Of a stretch of DNA of 64,000 nt, positions 19,085 to 48,930 are shown piece after piece. The notes beneath the pieces were generated by a model. It worked only from the letters and a program-made list of their open reading frames with translations. It had not been told where the DNA came from and ran no database searches. Origin of the DNA: Okamejei kenojei (taxonomy: Eukaryota); assembly GCA_035221665.1 (NCBI GenBank), contig CM069167.1, positions 18,166,001-18,230,000 on the forward strand. The letters are read 5' to 3'. Position numbers and translations under genes: made by a program. The stretch's first letter is position 1, and every line of letters starts with the position of its first letter.

Positions 19085-20029
19085 TCATAGGCTGAAGCCT
19101 CGGGCCTCGGAATCTGGCCGGCCTCCAGCCAAAGCAGGACACCTGCCGCTCAACTCTGGGCGGGTCCCCCTCGCTATCTCCGTCTCCGCCCGCCACCCGT
19201 GTCCGTGACCGTGTCCGTGTGTGTGTCCGTGACCGTGTCCGTGTGTGTGTCCGTGTCCGTGTCCGTGTGTGTGTCCGTGACCGTGTGTGTGTCCGTGTCC
19301 GTGTCCGTGTGTGTGTCCGTGTGTGTGTCCGTGTGTGTGTCCGTGACCCCGTACCTCCTGTTGTGTGTCCGTGTCCGTGTCCGTGTGTGTGTCCGTGTCC
19401 GTGAGTGTGTGTCCGTGTGTGTGTGACCGTGTCCGTTCCGTGTCCCGTGTGTGTGTGTCCGTGTCCGTGTGTGTGTCCGTGTCCGTGTGTCCGTGTCCGT
19501 GACCGTGTCCGTGTCCGTGACCGTGTCCGTCCGTGACCGTGTCCGTGTGCGTGTGTTCCGTGTCCCGTGTGTGTCCGGTCCGTGACCGTGTGTGTCCGTG
19601 TGTGTGTCCGGACCGTGTCCGTGTGTGTGTCCGTGTCCGTGTCCGTGTGTGTGTCCGTGTCCGTGTGTGTGTCCGTGTCCGTGTCCGTGTGTGTGTCCGT
19701 GTGTGTGTCCGTGTCCGTGTGTGTGTGTCCTGTCCGTGTGTGTGTCCGTGTCCGTGTGTGTGTCCGTGTCCGTGTCCGTGTGTGTGTCCGTGTGTGTGTC
19801 CGTGTGTGTGTCCGTGTGTGTGTCCATGTCCGTGTGTGTGTCCGTGTCCGTGTCCGTGTGTGTGTCCGTGTCCGTGTGTGTGTCCGTGTCCGTGTCCGTG
19901 TCCGTGTGTGTGTCCGTGACCGTGTCCGTGTCCGTGTCCGTGTCCGTGTCCGTGACCGTGTCCGTGTCCGTGACTGTGTCCGTGTCCGTGTCCGGGCCGC
20001 CGGGTCTCCGCTCTCCGCTCGCTCCTCAT
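19085..20029 (-). CDS. Possible low-complexity His/Gly/Thr-rich protein (repeat-encoded ORF)
   Basis: ATG in a GC-rich context (ggcggATG) just downstream of promoter motifs; a GT-AG intron at 19075-19005 and AATAAA at 18937-18932 follow. The repeat lacks stops, so the ORF alone is weak evidence. Confidence 0.3.
   Translation of the reverse strand: MRSERRAETRRPGHGHGHSHGHGHGHGHGHGHGHGHGHGHTHGHGHGHGHTHGHGHTHGHGHGHTHGHGHTHGHTHGHTHGHTHGHGHGHTHGHGHTHGQDTHTRTRTHTRTHTRTRTRTHTRTRTHTRTRTRTHTRTRSGHTHGHTRSRTGHTRDTEHTHTDTVTDGHGHGHGHGHGHGHTDTDTHTDTDTHTRDTERTRSHTHGHTLTDTDTHTDTDTDTQQEVRGHGHTHGHTHGHTHGHGHGHTHGHGHTHGHGHGHTHGHGHGHTHGHGHGHGWRAETEIARGTRPELSGRCPALAGGRPDSEARGFSL
19199..19992. repeat. Compound microsatellite of GTCCGT/GTGT/GACCGT units (~800 bp)
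   Basis: Directly visible. Confidence 0.97.
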
Positions 20030-20160
20030 CCGCCGGCACGGCCGGCCGCCTTACACATGCGCACTGCCACGGCAACTGGTCGGCGCTGGGCACTTTCTCC
20101 CTCGCTTTGAATTGTGGGAGATCTGGCCGCCATCGCTGTGTGCTCGCCGCGACCACTGAA
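19993..20160 (-). promoter_or_regulatory. CpG-island promoter with NRF1-like and RFX X-box-like motifs
   Basis: High CpG density; catgcgca (~20056-20063) next to ctgccacggcaac (~20064-20076). Confidence 0.5.
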
Positions 20161-22399: not shown

Positions 22400-23456
22400 G
22401 ACAAAAATGCTGGAGAAACTCAGCGGGTGAGGCTGCATCTATGGAGCAAATGAAATAGGCGACGTTTCAGGTCGAGACCCTTCTTCAGACTGATGTGAGG
22501 GTGGGGGGGGACGGGAAGAAGAAAGGAAGAGGCGGAGACAGTGGGCTGAGGGAGAGCTGGGAAGGAGAGGAGAAAGCAGGGACTACCTGAAATTGAAAAG
22601 TCAATGTTCATACCTGTTAGGTACTTCCCCCCTCTTCTGGTGAATGCTATGTACTTAACTCTTCTGTTTTCTCTCCTGAGTGCAGGCCCCATGGCTGGAG
22701 TCAGGAATCAAGGGGTTAAGGGCTCCTGTACCCGATTGGCCAAGCTGCGTCAGGTGACGAGTGACTCATCTGAAAGCTTAAATACCAGAATCTTCCAGAA
22801 TTCTCCTCTCTTTCATCGATCCTGGCTCGTGAGCAGGTTGCTGGTGTGAGCTGCAGGAGGCCTGGCCACATGGCATAGAACTCTGCGTATTATTACCTAC
22901 ATTTGTCAATTAATATTGAATTGGGACGGATAAGGCTGACCTGAGGGTTTTTCGTGTATTTTGTTTAAGGGTTATATTTCCATTTAGGCAGGTTAGAGAA
23001 CTCTAGTTCGACGGCCCATTGCAGAGGCTGGCTGGAGCACTGTTATCTTTGTTTTATTAGTTTAATTCTTGTCCTTGACTGGGTTTTGTTTGAATCAGTT
23101 TGAGTTTTAATTAAATAAAAGACAATTTTCCTTGAACTTGAGGGTACACAAAAAGCTGGAGAAACTCAGCGGGTGCAGCAGCATCTAAGGAGCGAAGGAG
23201 ATAGGCGACGTTTCGGGTCGAGACCCTTTCTTCAGACTTGAGCCTGGATTTTTACTATATTACGCGGCTCTGAAGTACCTGCATTCGAGAGTCGTAACAA
23301 TAACCCCGTGGGGTGCAAAGTTCCCAAGCAAAATATGAGGTGCTGCTCCTCCAATTTACGGTGGGCCTCACTCTGGCCATGGAAGAGGTCCAGGACAGAA
23401 AGGACGGATTCGGAATGGGAGGGGGTGTTGAAGTGCTGAGCCACTGGGAGATCAGG
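22400..23456 (-). mobile_element. Penelope-like element fragment (GIY-YIG C-terminus plus tail), split by a solo LTR
   Basis: AQHFNTPSHSESVLSVL...RKLEEQHLIFCLGTLHP; tail with hammerhead core at 22458-22491. Confidence 0.8.
22615..23299 (+). mobile_element. Solo LTR, itself containing a Penelope tail at ~23141-23237
   Basis: TGTTA...TAACA termini; ~5-bp duplication atacc/ataac; CCAAT-like (gattgg), TGCGTCA, TGACTCA, TTAAATA and AATAAA motifs. Confidence 0.7.
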
Positions 23457-23502
23457 TTCTCGGCCTTTTGGCTAAGATCAAGTGTAGTATCTGTTCTTAT
23501 CA
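23457..23502 (+). ncRNA. U2 snRNA 5' fragment (nt 6-51) fused to the 5' end of a Keno-like element
   Basis: ttctcggccttttggctaagatcaagtgtagtatctgttcttatca matches vertebrate U2 as recalled, including the branch-point recognition sequence GTAGTA. Confidence 0.95.
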
Positions 23503-25517
23503 TAGATATTCCAGGACGAGTGTTTGAGTGAAAGAGACTATCTGTTCTTATCAGAACAATTCTGGCGGTCCCTTGGGGACAAGGGCCATGGATTGCGGAG
23601 CAAAATCGAGGCTTAGAGGTGGATCCATGCTGGTTGGGAAACCAACCTAACACCTTAATCAGCCACAATGTCAGTAGGAGCAGGAGTACAGGGTATTCGG
23701 AAATACCCTGCGAATAAGCGTCAAAGGACCTCAGCAAGGGGACCCCCCCTTCTCACGAGACCTGTTCATGAAGAAGGTCTTGCTAGAGGCCTGCAAATTT
23801 GAGGCCAAGGACATCTACTGCCTCCAGGATCTCCCGGGTAACGGATATTTTGATGTTACCTTCAAGTATCCGACGGGATGGCAGAAGGTGATGGAAGACT
23901 TCCGGGAGAGGGGGAATGAAGCTCCGCTGTCGCTGCTGAAAGTGCAGCCGCTCTTCACCCTCCCCACCCAGAAGGAAAGGTTGATCACGGTGCACATGTT
24001 CAACCCACATGAGCTCGTAATGGATGTCCTCACCTTCCTTGCTCGCTAGGTTGAGGGAACAGGGAACTGTGTGGACATGAAGGACCTGCACGGGATTTGG
24101 ACCAGCAAGCGGCAAGTCAAGGTAAAGCCGAGGGTGGACAAGGACGGAGAAATCATCCACGCTCTCTCGGTTTTCGCGATTGGAGGAAACCGAGGATACT
24201 TGAGCTATGTGGGACAACCCAGGCTGTGCAGGAAATGCAACAAGCCTGGGCATGTGATGGCCCAATGCACTGCAGTTGTCTGCAAAAACTGCAAGATGGA
24301 GGTCCATGAGACAAAGGACTGTCAGGCCAGCAAGAACTGCAACCTGTGCGGGGAGGCAGGCCACCTTTACAGGGCTTGCCCTAAAAGAGCCTGCACCTAC
24401 GCACAGGCGACAAGAGGGGCTGCTGCCAGCACCCCCAAGGTGGGCGAGACACCCTCCACCACTGCCAAGACCCCAGCAGAAAGAGGGAACACGGATGAGG
24501 ACAGCCCAACCACCTCGAGGCCCCAAGTGCCAGAAGGAGACGCCCAGCATCCTGCCTAGGAGGGAGAGTCGATGGAGGAGGGGGAACAGCAGGAGAAATG
24601 GACAACGGTGAAGTACAAGAAGAGGGGTCAGCCCAAACAGCCGAGGCCGGAAAGGAGTGGTAAGTCCAAAAGTAAACCCCAAAAAAGGTCTCTTTCTCTT
24701 ACACAAGGCAACAACCTCTCCTCCTCGTCGGAGGATGAGGCGACCGGGAAGTCCCAACGAGGGAGGCAGAGGAAGAAAACGGGGGAGGAAAAGAGAGAGG
24801 CCACGACGATCACCTCCCAGCCTCAAGAGACCAAGAGCAGAGAGGTGGCCGAGAGGCTCCAGCCCCAGGACATCGGGAGCAGTGCAGCGGTCAAAGGGCT
24901 CCAGCCCCAGGACATCGGGAGCAGCGCAGTGGTCGAGGGTTTCCAGCCCCTGGAGACAGGGATCATCACAGAGGCCATTGGGCCCCAGCTACGGGAGACC
25001 GGAGTGCAGCGGCCATTGGGCCCCAGCTACAGGAGACAAAGGAAGCGGCATGCCCAAAAGGGGGTGGAACGAGAAGGCCCCCCACCAACGACACCTTTGG
25101 TTACGCCACCTGAAACTCACCTCACCGCTGGATTCCTGAGCCCAGGAAAGCTGAGGCAATTCACCGAAGCGGTGGGAATGAGGGGACATGGAAATGGTCA
25201 GTGACTCTAAAGACAATGGAGCTCAAACTGGCATCTTTAAACGTGCGCAGTATAAAGAGCACTGTGCGATGTGCTAATGCCTTACAGTACCTGGCCAAGG
25301 TCAAGGCAGATGTGACTTTTCTTCAGGAGTGCGGGCTGCCACACCTCCGCTGTTATCGGAGGTGGTCGCGATGGTGGCCCCGCGGACTGTTGGTGTGGTC
25401 GGGGGGAAATGACTGTCGTGCTTCCGGCCTGGGGATTTTGCTGCGGGGAGGGAACTTCGCCATCACTGAGGTCAGGGAAGTGGTTGGAGGGCGTCTCCTC
25501 GTGGTGGATGTTATGTA

Positions 25518-27284
25518 AGCATATAACCATATAACCATATAACAATTACAGCACGGAAACAGGCCCTCTCGGCCCTTCCAGTCCGTGCCGACCATTTGTT
25601 TTCCCCTAATCCCATCTACCTGCACTCAGACCATACCCCTCCATTCCCTTCACGTCCATATACCTATCCACTTTACTCTTAAATGTTAAAAAATCGATCC
25701 TGCCTCCACCACTTCTGCTGGAAGCTGATTCCACACAGCCACCACCCTCTGAGTAAAGAAGTTCCCCCTCACGTTACCCCGAAAACCTCTGACCCTGAAT
25801 TCTCATGTCATGCCCTCTTGTTTGAATCTTCCTACCTCAATGGGAAAGACGTATCCACGTCAACTCTGTCTATCCCTTTCATCATTTTAAAGACCTCAAT
25901 CAAGTCCCCCCCCCCTTAACCTTCTGCGCTCCAAAGAATATAACGACCTAACTTGTTCAAAACCTTTCTCTGTAACCATAGTTGCTGGAACCCTGGCAAT
26001 AAACATTCTAGTAAATCTCCTCTGTACTCTCTCTCTATTTTGTTGACATCCTTCCTAATAACTAGGAGGCGAACCAAAATTGTACACCATACTCCAGAAT
26101 TGGTCTTACCAATGCCTTGTCATACAATTTAACTATTACTATCCCTACTCCTATATTCAATAGCTCTGATTTATATAGCCAGCACACCAAAGGCTTTCTT
26201 TAACCACCTACCTACATGCGATTCCACCTTCAGCGGAACTATGCACAGTTTATTCCTAGATCCCTCTGTTCCACAAGCATTCCTCAATTCCCAACCATTT
26301 ACCATGTACGTCCTATTTTGATTTGTCCTGCCAAGATGTAGGCACTTCACCACTTATCAGCATTAAACTCCATCTGCCATCTTCAGCCCACTTTTTCCAA
26401 ATGGCCCAAATCTCTTTGTAGTCTTTGAAAATCTACTTCATTATCCACAACACCACCTATTGTAGTATCATCTGCATACTTACTTATCCAATTTTCCACC
26501 CCAACATCCAGATCATTGATGTACATGACAAACAACAGTGGACCAACACGACAGATCCTGAGGCACCCCACTGGTTCACCTCGGCTTCCAACCTGACAAA
26601 CAGCCATCCACCATTACTCTCTGACATCTCCCATTCAGCCACTGTTGAATCCATCTTGCTACTACCGCCATTAACACACCCAAAGATTGAACCTTCTTAA
26701 CCAAACCTCCATGGGGAAACCCCCCCCCGCCCTTGTCAAGGCCTTACTGAAATCCATATAGACAACATCCACTGCTTTAACCCTCATCAATTTCCCTAGT
26801 TTACCGCTTCAAAAAATTCAAGAAGGCTTTGTCAAACATGACCTTCCAGGCACAAATCCACGTTGACTGTTCCTTATCAGAACCCTGTTTTATCCAGATG
26901 CTTATAAGATTATCCCTAATATCCTTTCCATTAATTTGCCCCACCACTGACGTCAAACTAATAGGTCTATAATTGCAGGTTTATTCTTTGAAACCCTTTT
27001 TAAACAATGGAACAACATGCGCAGTACGCCCAATCCTCCGGCACTATTCCCGTTTTCTAATGACAATTGAAATATTTCTGTCATAGCTCCTGCTATTTCT
27101 ACACTAACTTCCCTCAATGTCCTAGGGAATATCCTGTCAGGAGACCTGGAGACTTATCCACTTTATATTTTTTCAAATGTGTCAGTACTTTCCTCCTCTT
27201 TGAATCTCATAGTTTCCATAGCTACACTTTTTTCTTCCCCTTAACTCACACCGAGTTTCAATATCCTTCTCCTTGGTGAATACC
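25518..27284 (-). mobile_element. CR1 LINE inserted in the Keno ORF2 endonuclease
   Basis: KYADDT RT motif; (GGTTATAT)n tail; ATGTA duplication at 25513-25517 and 27285-27289; Keno coding sequence (VDVMYRGSPL) resumes after it. Confidence 0.9.
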
Positions 27285-29679
27285 ATGTACCCGTGGCTCT
27301 CCCGCTCTCGCTGATAAATGTTATGCCTCACCCACGCAGAGCGAACGCTGGCCATTCTCCAGCAGCTCCCAGTGCTGCTGGCCACGTCCCGGCAGCTCGT
27401 TCTGGCCGTGACTTCAACTGCATCATTGAATGCGGCTGGACGATCCGGCAAGTGCCGACAGCGACTGGACCGCACGTCCAAAGTTCCCTGATGGCATGGT
27501 AAAAGACGCAAAGCTGCGCGACGCCTTCATCGACCCTGCAGGCGGGTCCCAGCCGCGTTCATCTGGTCCGAGATCGACGGTTTAGCTCGATCTCGGATAG
27601 ACTTCGTCTTCATGTGAAGGCTGTCACGGTGAGAGACACCGACCTCACGCCAGTGTTCTTCTCCGACCACTGCCTCCTTCAGGCTATCCTGTCACCCTAC
27701 AGGAGGAACCGGAAGGCAGGCAGAGGGACGAGGAAGTTAAACGTGAAGCTGTTGACCCCAGAGAATGTCGAGGAACTAAAGAGGGACTACACATGTTGGA
27801 GAACGGGTGAGGCCCCTCTTGATTCCCCCCCCACACTCTGGTGGGAAGCAACCAAGGAGAACATTAAGAGGTTCTTCATAATTAAAGGGTTCAGAGAGCA
27901 AGACAGAGCCAGAGGGAATTGTGCCAACTCCAGACAGATTTGCAACAACTGCTCCTTCTGCAGTCGAGCGGGGTGGATGTGAGGGAGGAACTTAGAGAGT
28001 TGAAGGACCGGCAAGCTCAGCTCTTCACCTCTGAATCTCTCCAAGATCATCTTCCGATCCAGAGTCCGCCATGTGGAGCAGGATGAGACTGCTCACGTTT
28101 CTTCTCCATGAGGTGCACAGGGGGAGCTCTGTGATGAACAGCCTTGGGGAGGAGACTGGCACTGTAGCATCCTCACAGAACAGACAGCTGAGGATCTGCA
28201 AATCCTTTTACACAGATTTATGTATGACCAAAAGACCACAGACAGTACCTCCTCCCAGAAGTTCCTGTCCTCGATCACAGGAGGTCTTGGAGGACAGCTA
28301 GCGGGAGAGTCTGGACCACCACTGACCGTAGAGGAGCGACTGGCTCCATCCGTTCCTTTGACTCGAGTAAAACTCCCGGAAGCGATTGTCTTACCGGCCG
28401 AGTTGTATTTGGCTCTGTGGGACTGGATGGGCCCCTGACCTGCCAGAAGTGTACAACGACATGCTTCTAGCTGGTAGCATGTCAAGACTCCATAAGAAGG
28501 GCAACATCACCCTAATCTAGCAGAAGGGGAGATGAAGGACAATCATAAAGAATTGGAGACCCATAACACTCCTTGAAGTAGACTACAAGATCCTGTCTAA
28601 GGCCATCGCCAACCGGTCAAGTCTGCTCTGGGACAGGTGATCCACCCGGACCAAACCTGTGCTTTACCTGGCAGGAAAATCTCGGACAGCCTAGCGCTGC
28701 TGAGAGATACATCGCCTACTTGCAGGACAGAAGGTGGATGCCTGCCTATTCAGCTTGGACCAGAGAAGGCCTTCAACAGTATTTCGCACACAGTACATGA
28801 GGGACGTGCTCTCCAAAATGGGTTTTGGGGATGAATCAGGAATTGGATCAAACTGCTCTACACCAACATCCGTAGTGCCAGTCCAAATCAATGGGTGGGA
28901 ATCAGACAGTTTCCCTGTGGTCTGGAGTCAGGCAGGGTTGCCCTCTCTCTCTCCTGTCTTGTTTGTCTGCTGTAATTGAACCCTTGCCGAATCCATCAGG
29001 AGTAAGGATGCGAGCACAAGAGGAGTGACATTGCCAGGCAGTGGGGGCATTCAAAGTAAAAACCCTCCCTGTACATGGACAATGTCGCTATCTTCTGCTC
29101 GGATCCAGGGTCGGTCCGCATACTGATTATGTAGTTTGTGCGATCAGTTGAGTCCCGCCACGGGAGCCGGGTTGAATCGCGGAGGAGAGAGGCCCCCCAA
29201 AGATCTCCGTCCCCTTCACCTCAAGCCTGACATGAAGGTGCTTGGGGGAACTGGTTCGGGGGGGCTGAGGCGTGTAACAAGAATTGCTGGAGCTGATAGC
29301 CAGGGTGGGGAGGAAGCTGGAGCTGTGGAGGCAACGCTCACTCATCCATAACGGGAAAGAATATTTTGTCATCAGGTGAGAGGTGCCCTCGGGGCTGCTG
29401 TACTTGGCACAAGTTGGCATCTTCTCCCTCCCTCCTATGCCACAGGGATCACACGGGCTGTCTTTCAGTTAATCTGGGGGTCGATGAAAGACCGGGTGCA
29501 ACGGGCCACAATGTACAAGTCAACAGACAGCGGGGGTAAAAGCGTGCCCAACGTCGCCCTCACCCTGATGGCCACCTTCGTGTGTGGCTGCATCAGACGG
29601 AGTGTAGAGCCAAGGCACGTGGGCACCAAGTGTCACTACCTGCTGAGGTTCTACCTGTCCCCGGTGTTGCGAAGTATGG

Positions 29680-29761
29680 ATGATCAGCCATGATCATATT
29701 GAATGGCGGTGCAGGCTCGAAGGGCTGAATGGCCTACTCCTGCACCTAATTTCTATGTTTC
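29680..29761 (+). mobile_element. Ultra-truncated CR1 3' tail inserted in Keno ORF2
   Basis: gatcagccatgatcatattgaatggcggtgc...ttctatgtttctatg flanked by TATGG. Confidence 0.8.
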
Positions 29762-30567
29762 TATGGGCCTGGCGCAGATGCCACGCAATGTGCCAGCCAC
29801 CTGTGGTCTGTGGAAATGGTTCCTTCCGGACCAACCCTTTGGACCACATGTCCATTGGGCAGTGGACAGCACATGTGAAGTTCCTGCACCGTCGGAACCT
29901 CACTGCCAGCGCACGCTGCCCTCGGAGGGCTGCTATGGAGAGGAGACGGTTGTCCACTCCTTTTGCAGAGTGTTGGATTTGCTAAAAGAGTCTGGAGGGT
30001 CCCCCTGGTACCCGTTTATCCCGAACAACAGCTCCGTCACAGAGGACCTCTGTGATTTACGGACTGTTCCCATGTACAACTTCAGATACTGACATTCGAG
30101 TGCTGCTGGAGGGTCTCAACCGGTGAAAGACGCCCTTTGGTCTGCCGAGTCATTGTTTTTCAACGTCACCCAGCAGAGCGAGATGTCCGTCAGGGAATGT
30201 TGCCGACTGCTCGCTGCAGAATGCAGGAGTACGTGCTGATGGACGCACTGAAGCTCGGTGCAGCCAACGCCAAGGCTCGGTGGTGGGAGGGCCACAGTCT
30301 CATAGGGTCCTTCCGCTGCTGGACATGGGGGGGTACGGTATGGTGGAGACGCCCTCAAAATAAGGGTAAGGTATCCCACGCCAGTGTGCCACATGAGGGG
30401 CACGGGTGGGGGGACCAACATTTGTGAAATTTGGGGAAAAGAAATGTATAACTGTATTGAACAATTTGTATAGCCTCCAAAAATGTCGGATGGATTTTCC
30501 GCAAGTATTAACATTAATTGTATTATTTATCATTTGAATAAAGTCTATTTTGAAATTTTAAAAAAAG

Positions 30568-31920
30568 TCCATGATGTTTTCTAGAGCCACTTCCTTAAGT
30601 ACCCTGGGATGCAGACCATCATGCCCTTGGAGATTATCAGCCTTCAGTCCCATCAGTTTATTCAACACCATTTCCTGCCGGATGTGAATTTCCGTCATTC
30701 CTCCTCCGTTACGCTAGATCGGGACGTGGGAACCTTTTTACGTTGGAATGTTGCATTAAGTTAGCTGTAATCTAATAAGGCCGCCATCCAAGAAACTTCA
30801 ATTAGAATAACATTCAAATGTATATAAACATTATTTGGTAAAATCTACCTACCTACCTACTAACTTCAAAAAGTGAAAAAAAGTTTGTTCATTCTAAAAG
30901 TTTAAACTGTCAATGACTTTGTTTGTGACTGCTTTCTAGAGTCTTGAGTCGCATTAGAACTAAATCATGAGCATAACGGGTGTTAAAATAGCCCTCATGA
31001 CTTACTAAACGTTTTAAATTGTGGCCGTCAGTCGGGAGGATTTTGTTGAATCTTACTTTTATTCTTGGTATTTTAAATACGTTCATTTAAGATAAAAATC
31101 ATAAAAGATGAATAAAAAACATTAATAAAAATAAAAGGATTTGTTCTCAAACAAAATTTGGATTCATTCGAAAAGGCCGCACTTAATGGCCTAGAAGGCC
31201 GCATAACGGCTTTAAGGCCGCAGTTCCCCATCCCTGCCCTAGATCCTCTAGCCACTAGTACATCGGGAGATTGTTTGTGTCCTCCTTGAGTGAAGATGGA
31301 TCCAAAGTACCTGTTCAACTCGTCTACCATTTCCTTGTTCCCCCATAATAAATTCACCTGTTTCAGTCTTCAAGGGTCCAACTTTGTCTTTAACTAATGT
31401 ATTTCCGCTTCACAATCCTAAACAAGCTTTTACTATCCTCCCTTTATATTCTTGGCGAGCTTTACCTTCGTTACCTCATACTTTTCTCCCCGTAATTGCC
31501 TTTTTAGTTATCTTCTGTTGCTCTTTAAACGTTCTCAATCCGCTGGCTTCCCGCTCATCTTTGCTATGTTATACTTCTCTTTATTTTTATTACGTGCCCT
31601 GACATACCCTTGTCAGCCACAGTTCGCCCCTTACTCCCCTTGGAATCTTTCTTCCTCTTTGGAAATAACTGATCCTGAACCTTCTGTATTATTTCCCAGA
31701 AATACCTGTCATTGTTGTCCCTGCTGGGTATCTTTCCAGTCAACTTTGGCCCCAGCTCCTCCCTCATGGCTCTTGGCATAATCCCCTTTGTTCAATTGTA
31801 ATACTGATACTTCTGATTTTTCCCTTCTCCCTCTCAAATTGTAAGATTAAAACTTATATATTTATGGTCACTACCTATGTTCCTTTACCTCGAATTTCCT
31901 TATCAAATCCAGTTCATTAT
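30568..31920 (-). mobile_element. CR1 ORF2 internal fragment, split by a hAT MITE
   Basis: NKEMVDELNRYFGSIFT; gccacttccttaagtaccctgggatg motif. Confidence 0.8.
30720..31236. mobile_element. Non-autonomous hAT (Charlie-like) DNA transposon
   Basis: Ends cgggacgtgggaac / gttccccatccctg; 8-bp TSD cgctagat / ccctagat centred on TAG; aaggccgc subterminal repeats. Confidence 0.75.
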
Positions 31921-48050: not shown

Positions 48051-48755
48051 GGATGCGACGGGGCACAATGTACAACTCAGCAGACAACGGGGGTAAAAGC
48101 GTGCCCCGGGACGGTGCTGCTATGGAGAGGAGACGTTTGCCCACTTCTTTACAGGAGTGTGGGTTTGCTAAAAGAGTCTGGAGGAAAAAATTGCAAGGGT
48201 CCCTGAGATACACTTTATCACTCCGAACCCCCCCCCCCAGCTCCGTCACAAGAGGACTCGATGATTTACGGACTGTTCCAGGGACACATTCAGAGGCTGA
48301 ATCGCGTGCTGCTAGAGGGTCATCAACTCGGGTTAAAGACGCCCTTTGGTCTGCTCGTGCATTGTTCACCACCCAGCAGAGCGAGATGTCCGTCGGGGAA
48401 TGTTGCCGACTGGCCCGCTGCAGACTGCAGGAGTACGTGCTGAGGGACGCACTGATAGCTCGGTGCAGCCAAGCCAAAGCTCGGTGGGGGAAGGCAACGG
48501 TCTAAGGTCCTTCCGCTGCTGGACATGGGGGGTACGGTATGGTGGAGACGCCCCTCAAGAAGGTATCCCACGCCATTGTGGCACGAGTTTATAGGGGGGA
48601 CTGATTTGTGGTAATTTTGGTGGGGAAAAGAAATGTTCTCAACTGTATTGATCTATTGGACAGCCTCCGGAAAAATGTCGGATGGATTTTCCGCAAGGTT
48701 CCTTGTATTGATATATTGGTCATTGATAATAAAGTATATTTTGAAATTTAAAAAA
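48051..48755 (+). mobile_element. Keno-like 3' end (second copy) inserted in a U2 gene
   Basis: Similar to 29495-30567 (MY.S.D.GGKSVP; VKDALWSAR; CCRLARCRLQEYVLRDAL); AATAAA and A-tail directly abut U2 nt ~36. Confidence 0.92.
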
Positions 48756-48910
48756 GTATCTGTTTTATAGTTTAATATCTGATGGGTCCCTTATTAGATA
48801 AGGACCATATATTAAATTGATTTTTGGAACAGGGAGATGGAATAGGGGCTTGCTCCGCCACTCCACGCATCGACCCAGTATTGCAGTGCCTCTGGGTAAC
48901 GGTGCACCTC
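48756..48910 (+). ncRNA. RNU2: U2 snRNA gene, 3' part (nt ~36 to end), disrupted by the Keno insertion
   Basis: gtatctg..tttaatatctgat; Sm site AUUUUUG at 48820-48826; stem III ggagatggaatagg.gcttgctcc; stem IV loop tattgcagt; ends ggtgcacc. Confidence 0.95.
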
Positions 48911-48930
48911 CCTTTTGGGAGATTTTCAAA

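Follow-up and report, generated by a model that had tools for sequence, protein, structure and literature searches.

As of 2015, the elements described as targeting small nuclear RNA (snRNA) genes comprised only Keno and Utopia, which insert into U2 genes, and Dada, which inserts into U1 and U6 genes, each with one target (PMC4640811). Keno is a long interspersed nuclear element (LINE) of the Tx1 clade that encodes an apurinic/apyrimidinic (AP) endonuclease and integrates specifically into genes for U2 snRNA (Kojima and Fujiwara 2004, as cited in PMC4494074 and PMC4640811); Utopia shares its U2 target site (PMC4640811). In crocodilians, the Keno-related Tx1 families of Tx1-Mar carry 5' ends derived from U1 or U2 snRNA (heads), and the transcription of SINEU was left open (Kojima 2015, PMC4494074). 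U1 and U2 heads on Keno-related Tx1 elements are thus already known. Here we analyse a Keno-like Tx1 copy in a stretch of 64,000 nucleotides (nt) from the skate Okamejei kenojei, in the following called the window (C37:18,166,001-18,230,000 of a 2.76-Gb genome; C37 is CM069167.1), together with the family to which this copy belongs; L numbers denote fetched loci. The window copy is dead and recombined. We consider it probable that nt 32-43 of U2, U1 and U4 genes are insertion sites of its family, which likely borrows the promoters of these genes, so that new copies elsewhere are headed by snRNA sequence. In the literature searched, with subscription papers, Repbase, Dfam and paper supplements outside its scope, we found no LINE that targets U1 or U4 genes and no report of this family in skates.

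Using exact sequence patterns, we detected at least 1,794 3' ends and at least 262 5' untranslated regions (UTRs) of the family in the genome. The 3' ends lie directly before U2 sequence at 27 places, 23 of them on C37, with the first U2 base at 33-43. At another 28 places they lie directly before U1 sequence, with 13 of these on C30 and C33 near U1 genes; the 20 U1 stretches that we fetched start at nt 32-41, and all 20 run into the genomic U1 3' flank. Two 3' ends were found in U4 genes of a cluster on C16, at nt 33 and 37. Reversed-pattern controls yielded no snRNA-gene junction. A preliminary description of the window had noted that Keno elements are site-specific for U2 genes; such specificity does not hold for the family: U1 and U4 genes are also entered and about 97% of the counted 3' ends lie outside snRNA genes, which rules out a strictly U2-specific Keno.

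The insertions into different genes could not be separated into lineages. On a 3'-end tree of 84 sequences (the complete set of 38 distinct snRNA junctions that we had fetched, the window copy and a random draw of 45 from 91 others), the U1-inserted copies do not cluster (17 changes compared to a shuffled mean of 17.5), and one U1-inserted copy (L365) is identical over 604 nt to a U2-inserted, promoter-bearing copy (L296). As U1 and U2 copies are intermixed on the tree, we conclude that one family enters these genes. The hot spots that we observed are snRNA genes, CR1-like repeats and Penelope-like repeats; one site in the Penelope-like repeat accounts for 11 of 57 5'-intact copies and for 13 of 91 sampled 3' ends, at a background site density of 4 per 367 kb. 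The target consensus is weak: the base before the nick is C at 13 of 21 sites, and GATCA is found upstream in 4 of 21 (including a duplicate and one Penelope site) compared to 2.9% in the background. We found no strong target motif among these 21 sites and claim none.

The 5' ends of the family carry the second line of evidence. Heads were scored in the first 60 listed 5' ends; three without an intact body start were left out. A head is present in 56 of the remaining 57 copies, and the types comprise 32 U2, 14 U1 plus U2, 9 U1, 1 U4 plus U2 and 1 short U1 remnant only. The U2 heads start at U2 nt 1-25, with 33 of 47 starting at nt 1-7, and none of the 57 heads includes promoter-proximal DNA. 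TSDs (target-site duplications) of the family measure 9-23 nt. Among 44 copies of which both ends are available, the head lies inside a TSD in 26, compared to 32 of 1,892 mismatched pairs in the control; the 44 copies include 8 that had been picked earlier by similarity, and a looser automatic test was set aside (178 of 1,560 in its control). U2 heads without promoter DNA at dispersed sites, as envisaged in the preliminary description, are thus found within TSDs. The heads end at nt 47-54 for U2, at nt 51-56 for U1-only heads and at nt 42 for U4. In three genes these ends correspond to the nick position plus the length of the TSD, which fits read-through from position +1 of the snRNA.

Alternatively, the element might use its own or a flanking promoter, and heads might be added at each insertion by the reverse transcriptase (RT) jumping onto free snRNAs or short 5' fragments, with snRNA genes being mere hot spots. 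Such template jumping has been proposed for SINEU heads (Kojima 2015, PMC4494074). It is consistent with the observation that the U1 heads correspond to more than one of the genome's U1 gene variants, several being represented, by which a single U1 head copied unchanged is ruled out, and that the junctions of stacked heads differ, often with microhomology. Furthermore, extra 5' pieces include U3 (above the Rfam cut-off) and probably U5 (E 0.064), whose genes lay outside the junction search, besides a piece of U4 (nt 4-42) that was missed by Rfam and has one mismatch to the genome's own U4 gene. However, 56 of 57 copies are headed, whereas according to PMC4494074 only a minority of copies switch templates. 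The body-proximal head type also follows the subfamilies on a 5' tree, where the U1 type requires 2 changes compared to 14.1 when shuffled, and the agreement of head ends with nick plus TSD length in three genes argues in the same direction. We thus regard template jumping as an unlikely origin of the heads in general, although it probably accounts for part of the stacked ones.

Some copies still stand behind an snRNA promoter. Three of 21 U2 stretches (L296, L298 and L304) contain the promoter, the U2 5' part, the full element, its tail and the U2 3' part, and the head junctions of the promoter-bearing U2 loci recur in young dispersed copies. A truncated promoter-bearing U2 locus has U2 nt 38-53 duplicated. 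For U1, one locus (L371) has the promoter and nt 1-54 upstream and nt 41-164 downstream, but U1 nt 54 is separated from a U2 head by about 600 bp of DNA that resembles CR1 when compared by eye. Judging by this arrangement, the family likely reads out from snRNA gene promoters, and hence carries heads to new sites. A nick at about +35 to +40 plus a duplication of 10-18 bp would leave the promoter and snRNA nt 1 to about 50 in front of the element. Read-through RNA starting at snRNA +1 would then be the template for transposition, and a U2-headed copy that lands in a U1, U3, U4 or U5 gene would give rise to stacked heads. The promoter-bearing source loci bear directly on the question raised in PMC4494074 of how U1- and U2-headed elements are transcribed. 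The window copy had been proposed to be a retrocopy of a read-through RNA from a U2 promoter; this proposal is supported at the level of the family, by heads within TSDs and full-length copies behind U2 promoters, and holds in part for the window copy itself, which is a recombinant.

At some snRNA genes, the inserted units are chimeric. The U4 locus consists of an intact U4 gene, a 1.8-kb spacer, an element with its tail, U4 nt 33-141, the same spacer, an element with the same 5' junction and a non-U4 flank. Compared to its neighbour, the U4-ending unit has 1 substitution in the first ~700 nt; at the 3' end the difference rises to 13 per 200, and there the unit matches the young copy L296 instead (1 per 200). 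A pair of units at U1 on C30 follows the same pattern: at both loci, a young 3' end is joined to the 5' part of an older neighbour and an intact gene is left in front. This suggests that complementary DNA (cDNA) primed in an snRNA gene may often finish by pairing with a nearby older copy, thereby duplicating or deleting the DNA in between. If true, such neighbour-templated completion would account for LINEs being stacked behind intact snRNA genes and for the way in which these clusters are remodelled. Chimeric L1 insertions have reportedly been noted in the human literature; our literature search returned no comparable chimeric insertions.

That a single LINE family enters three snRNA genes, each at much the same distance from the start site, poses the question of whether targeting depends on sequence or on the snRNA transcription machinery. 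A tentative extension, which we find conceivable but would not favour at present, is that one LINE recognises the snRNA genes of RNA polymerase II (Pol II) as a class, by the distance from the start site (+32 to +43) and not by sequence. It would cycle among U1, U2, U3, U4 and U5 promoters, swap heads and often spare the host gene by completing its cDNA on an older neighbour. Class recognition by distance, if true, would also explain how heads of the SINEU type arise and are transcribed.

Several side observations concern snRNA sequences around family members. The genome contains at least five U1 gene variants that differ in stem-loop I (L312-L330; C21, C33, C1, C6, C27 and C30), and many intact U1 genes have fragments of the element less than 1.5 kb away, often 30-1,000 nt downstream of the gene (L312, L315-L317, L320-L326 and L328). 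Seven U1-headed copies (L013, L018, L021, L023-L025 and L030; C27, C29 and C18) share one long upstream flank that is unlike U1 promoters and were probably amplified within a larger repeat. At L346:1500-1720, we found a tail, a U1 3' part, a second A-tail and the Penelope hot spot, which may have arisen by 3' transduction from a copy in a U1 gene or by insertion into a retrocopy of U1. One copy (L374) apparently starts at U2 nt 35 directly after the tail of another copy, as if heads themselves were targets. A fragment of U4 (nt 4-80) within AT-rich DNA is repeated on several small contigs (L355-L359, L382, L384 and L387). In a 3'-end search of sequencing runs, the family was found in contigs of two runs, one of them of uncertain type but probably DNA; no snRNA flank was seen among 12 of the 243 loose-end rows, the element was not found in two raw-read runs, and a metagenome scan returned no relatives. 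Of the runs listed for the family, none was recorded as RNA, which speaks neither for nor against transcription.

The features of the window copy and its surroundings are listed in Table 1.

Table 1. Coordinates of the window copy, its flanks and a second family member in the window
Feature	Position	Strand	Remark
Penelope-like (GIY-YIG-coding) repeat, upstream flank	23323..23456	-	Junction ~10 nt from the hot spot of the family, 2-nt microhomology
U2 snRNA nt 6-51 (head)	23457..23502	+	Rfam; 100% in sister copy
7-nt linker, U1-head remnant and 7-nt junction of the U1-headed subfamily	23503..23527	+	
5' UTR of the LINE body	23528..23667	+	Two predicted hairpins at start (fold of related copy L102)
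Open reading frame 1 (ORF1): ZCCHC3-type RNA-binding domains and CCHC knuckles; two stops in aligned stretch	23668..25204	+	
ORF2: AP endonuclease, RT, zf-RVT; insertions and many frameshifts	25216..30300 (end approximate)	+	Domains on copies L244 and L286
CR1-like insertion splitting ORF2, 1.77 kb	25518..27284	-	Common to sister copy at C37:18.36 Mb
Switch zone in which sister-copy alleles give way to those of the CR1-flanked group	28560..28775		Diagnostic sites
83-bp repeat fragment, inserted in the window copy alone among copies aligned	29680..29762	+	
3' UTR, poly(A) signal and A-tail	30301..30566	+	A-tail at 30556-30566
CR1-like 3' flank	30567..30705		Same junction in 9 C37 copies (among 30 loci); original insertion U1-headed with TSD (L098)
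Second family member, 3' fragment	48051..48755	+	
3' part of a U2 gene, starting at about nt 35 and directly following the A-tail of the second member	48756..48912	+	Genomic flank follows

The U2 fragment reported in the preliminary description was recovered by Rfam (match at 23452-23561, 56.2 bits with a cut-off of 46, E 1.9e-8), and the sequence behind it is indeed a Tx1-type LINE with both ORFs and an A-tail. The two are not fused directly, as had been stated: 25 nt intervene before the body begins at 23528, including 11 nt (23510-23520) that correspond to U1 nt 45-56 with one base missing, and the body is that of the U1-headed subfamily. The element, described as near full-length, contains two insertions, a deletion of about 155 bp near 29885, stops and frame breaks. 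On natural copies of the family, Pfam identifies ZCCHC3-type RNA-binding and CCHC domains in ORF1 and Exo_endo_phos, RVT_1 and zf-RVT in ORF2. The window copy is decayed and dead, and thus only a damaged witness of its family.

Both RNA-binding Pfam domains of ZCCHC3 are found on ORF1 (L286:4681-6483 on the minus strand; 24050-24556 in the window), which hints at a link between this type of ORF1 and the host gene ZCCHC3. At 23528-23590, a 13-nt copy of sequence adjacent to the U2 target lies within a predicted hairpin (folded on the copy L102). The internally deleted form of the second family member (48051-48912) recurs at five other loci (L294, L302, L305, L307 and L310). Elsewhere in the window, a long low-complexity repeat (19085-20110) opens spurious reading frames.

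Both flanks are repeats, as previously described. The upstream one is a GIY-YIG-like minus-strand repeat whose Pfam match, obtained on a homologous copy, is weak (E 0.081); the downstream one, to which an ORF matching RVT_1 is related, we take to be CR1-like. The test of both ends found no TSD around the window copy, again in agreement with the preliminary description. The site had been called a non-U2 site, which is correct for these immediate flanks but not for the surroundings: the window lies within the U2 gene cluster of C37 (15.2-20.5 Mb). Six intact genes in this cluster share the top score, and one of these is found 14 kb beyond the window end.

A segment of about 19 kb (10.6-29.7 kb of the window) is duplicated at C37:18.35-18.37 Mb with 90-97% identity. 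The sister copy in this duplicate has the same 5' junction as the window copy and is the only other exact match to it in the genome (2 in total), but its 3' end lies in a real U2 gene from nt 36, followed by genomic flank. Diagnostic sites are mostly of the sister type up to 28,560 and almost all of the CR1-group type from 28,775. The window copy is therefore a recombinant, formed in vivo or in the assembly, and its flanks do not match because the alleles switch between the two types in this zone.

The mismatch of the flanks might be an artefact, that is, an assembly chimera between near-identical segmental duplicates. Both halves do lie in duplicated segments of C37, the region is rich in indels and the switch falls within shared sequence. 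However, the copy has private features, namely the 83-bp insertion and substitutions relative to both parents, and the U4 and U1 loci contain chimeric units as well, in which the pattern of ages points to a biological origin. We consider an assembly chimera the least probable of the alternatives, and the result for the family is unaffected by it.

For the window copy alone, the U2 fragment could also be target DNA of a real insertion into a U2 gene, with subsequent loss of the promoter and exchange of the 3' part. In the sister copy, the 3' end lies in a real U2 gene (from nt 36), and U2 nt 36-51 occurs at both ends as a 16-bp duplication; both sister ends belong to the older U1-headed group, and upstream deletions are seen at other snRNA insertions. 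The 16-bp match is, however, also expected from a U2-headed copy that recombined with a copy in a U2 gene. In addition, a random deletion would have had to stop no more than ~10 nt away from the Penelope hot spot and precisely at U2 nt 6, in the range of normal head starts, and the upstream flank does not belong to the U2 repeat unit. The position of the Penelope/U2 junction together with the start at nt 6 makes a random deletion less likely than retrotransposition of an RNA with a U2 head, and we find the insertion into a U2 gene doubtful, if somewhat less so than template jumping as the origin of the heads. Under the reading that we prefer, an element of the U1 subfamily likely gained a U2 head and landed at the Penelope hot spot; this precursor would have been duplicated within the 19-kb segment, after which its 3' third would have been swapped with a CR1-flanked copy. 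The preliminary description had offered a retrotransposed head and a U2 insertion with rearranged flanks as alternatives, and each is right in part: the junction lies near the hot spot, but the 3' third comes from another copy, so that the window copy is not a clean record of one event.

A number of points weigh against our interpretation. The proposed transcription from snRNA promoters is a reading of DNA anatomy, and between promoter loci and dispersed copies either direction is possible. An uninterrupted arrangement of U1 promoter, U1 head and body has no exact match in the genome and was found in none of 20 U1 stretches. Only 57 of at least 1,794 3' ends (about 3%) lie in snRNA genes, and some of these are tandem duplicates. 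In stacked heads, the end of the U1 part varies between nt 34 and nt 55; repeated template switching would explain this variation no less well and probably contributes to the heads. The U1 units on C33 gave no clear chimera signal. As to the window copy, its 5' junction is at position 90-92 and thus upstream of the usual nick, which is at 106-122 for most copies, and the assembly holds no promoter-bearing parent of this junction among its 2 exact matches. A similar head junction is found in a single dispersed copy, L267, but this copy has only 11 of 34 derived body sites in common and a TSD below the threshold. Finally, the sequence looks rich in indels, and assembly chimeras are possible.

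Protein matches of the family are annotated as TX1-like. The nearest named protein is from Leucoraja, in a cluster 96% identical to the family ORF2, and the top matches include Takifugu BAD04856 (37%) and Danio BAC82621 (35%), which we assume to be Keno from the neighbourhood of their accessions, as they carry no such label. In a quick RT tree of 71 rows (all named and half of the unnamed matches), the family is sister to amphibian Tx1 proteins (SH-aLRT branch support 99); the placement relative to the clade of BAD04856 and BAC82621 is without resolution in this tree, which holds no labelled Keno or non-Keno Tx1 references. AB111948 is labelled Keno_Tn in PMC4746887, and PMC4889948 lists BAD04856 and BAD04858 without names.

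When comparing the skate family to known systems, we find that it works like Keno yet fails its U2-specificity. Both have two ORFs with AP endonuclease, RT and zf-RVT and insert into U2 at about nt 35-38. Unlike Keno, the skate family enters U1 and U4 genes, has about 97% of its copies elsewhere, uses a Penelope hot spot and carries heads as part of the mobile unit. In the quick tree, its RT groups with amphibian Tx1 proteins and not directly with BAD04856 and BAC82621. With Tx1-Mar and SINEU it shares 5' ends derived from U1 and U2, recurrent stacking of heads and a preference for another transposon as target. The accessible part of PMC4494074 reports neither snRNA-gene insertions nor promoter-bearing source loci for these elements, whereas source-like loci are found in the skate family, whose heads also include U3, U4 and probably U5, unlike the heads described there. 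Utopia targets U2 at the site of Keno with a restriction-like endonuclease and a single ORF (PMC4640811), compared to the AP endonuclease and two ORFs of the skate family, and Dada-U1 targets U1 genes but is a DNA transposon (PMC8869645); as described in the available text of these sources, both have one target gene per family, unlike the skate family. Lastly, R2 is co-transcribed with 28S ribosomal RNA (as cited in PMC4494074) and likewise relies on the promoter of a host gene. R2, however, depends on RNA polymerase I and one fixed site, whereas the skate family would use Pol II snRNA promoters and carry the 5' end of its host gene to unrelated sites.

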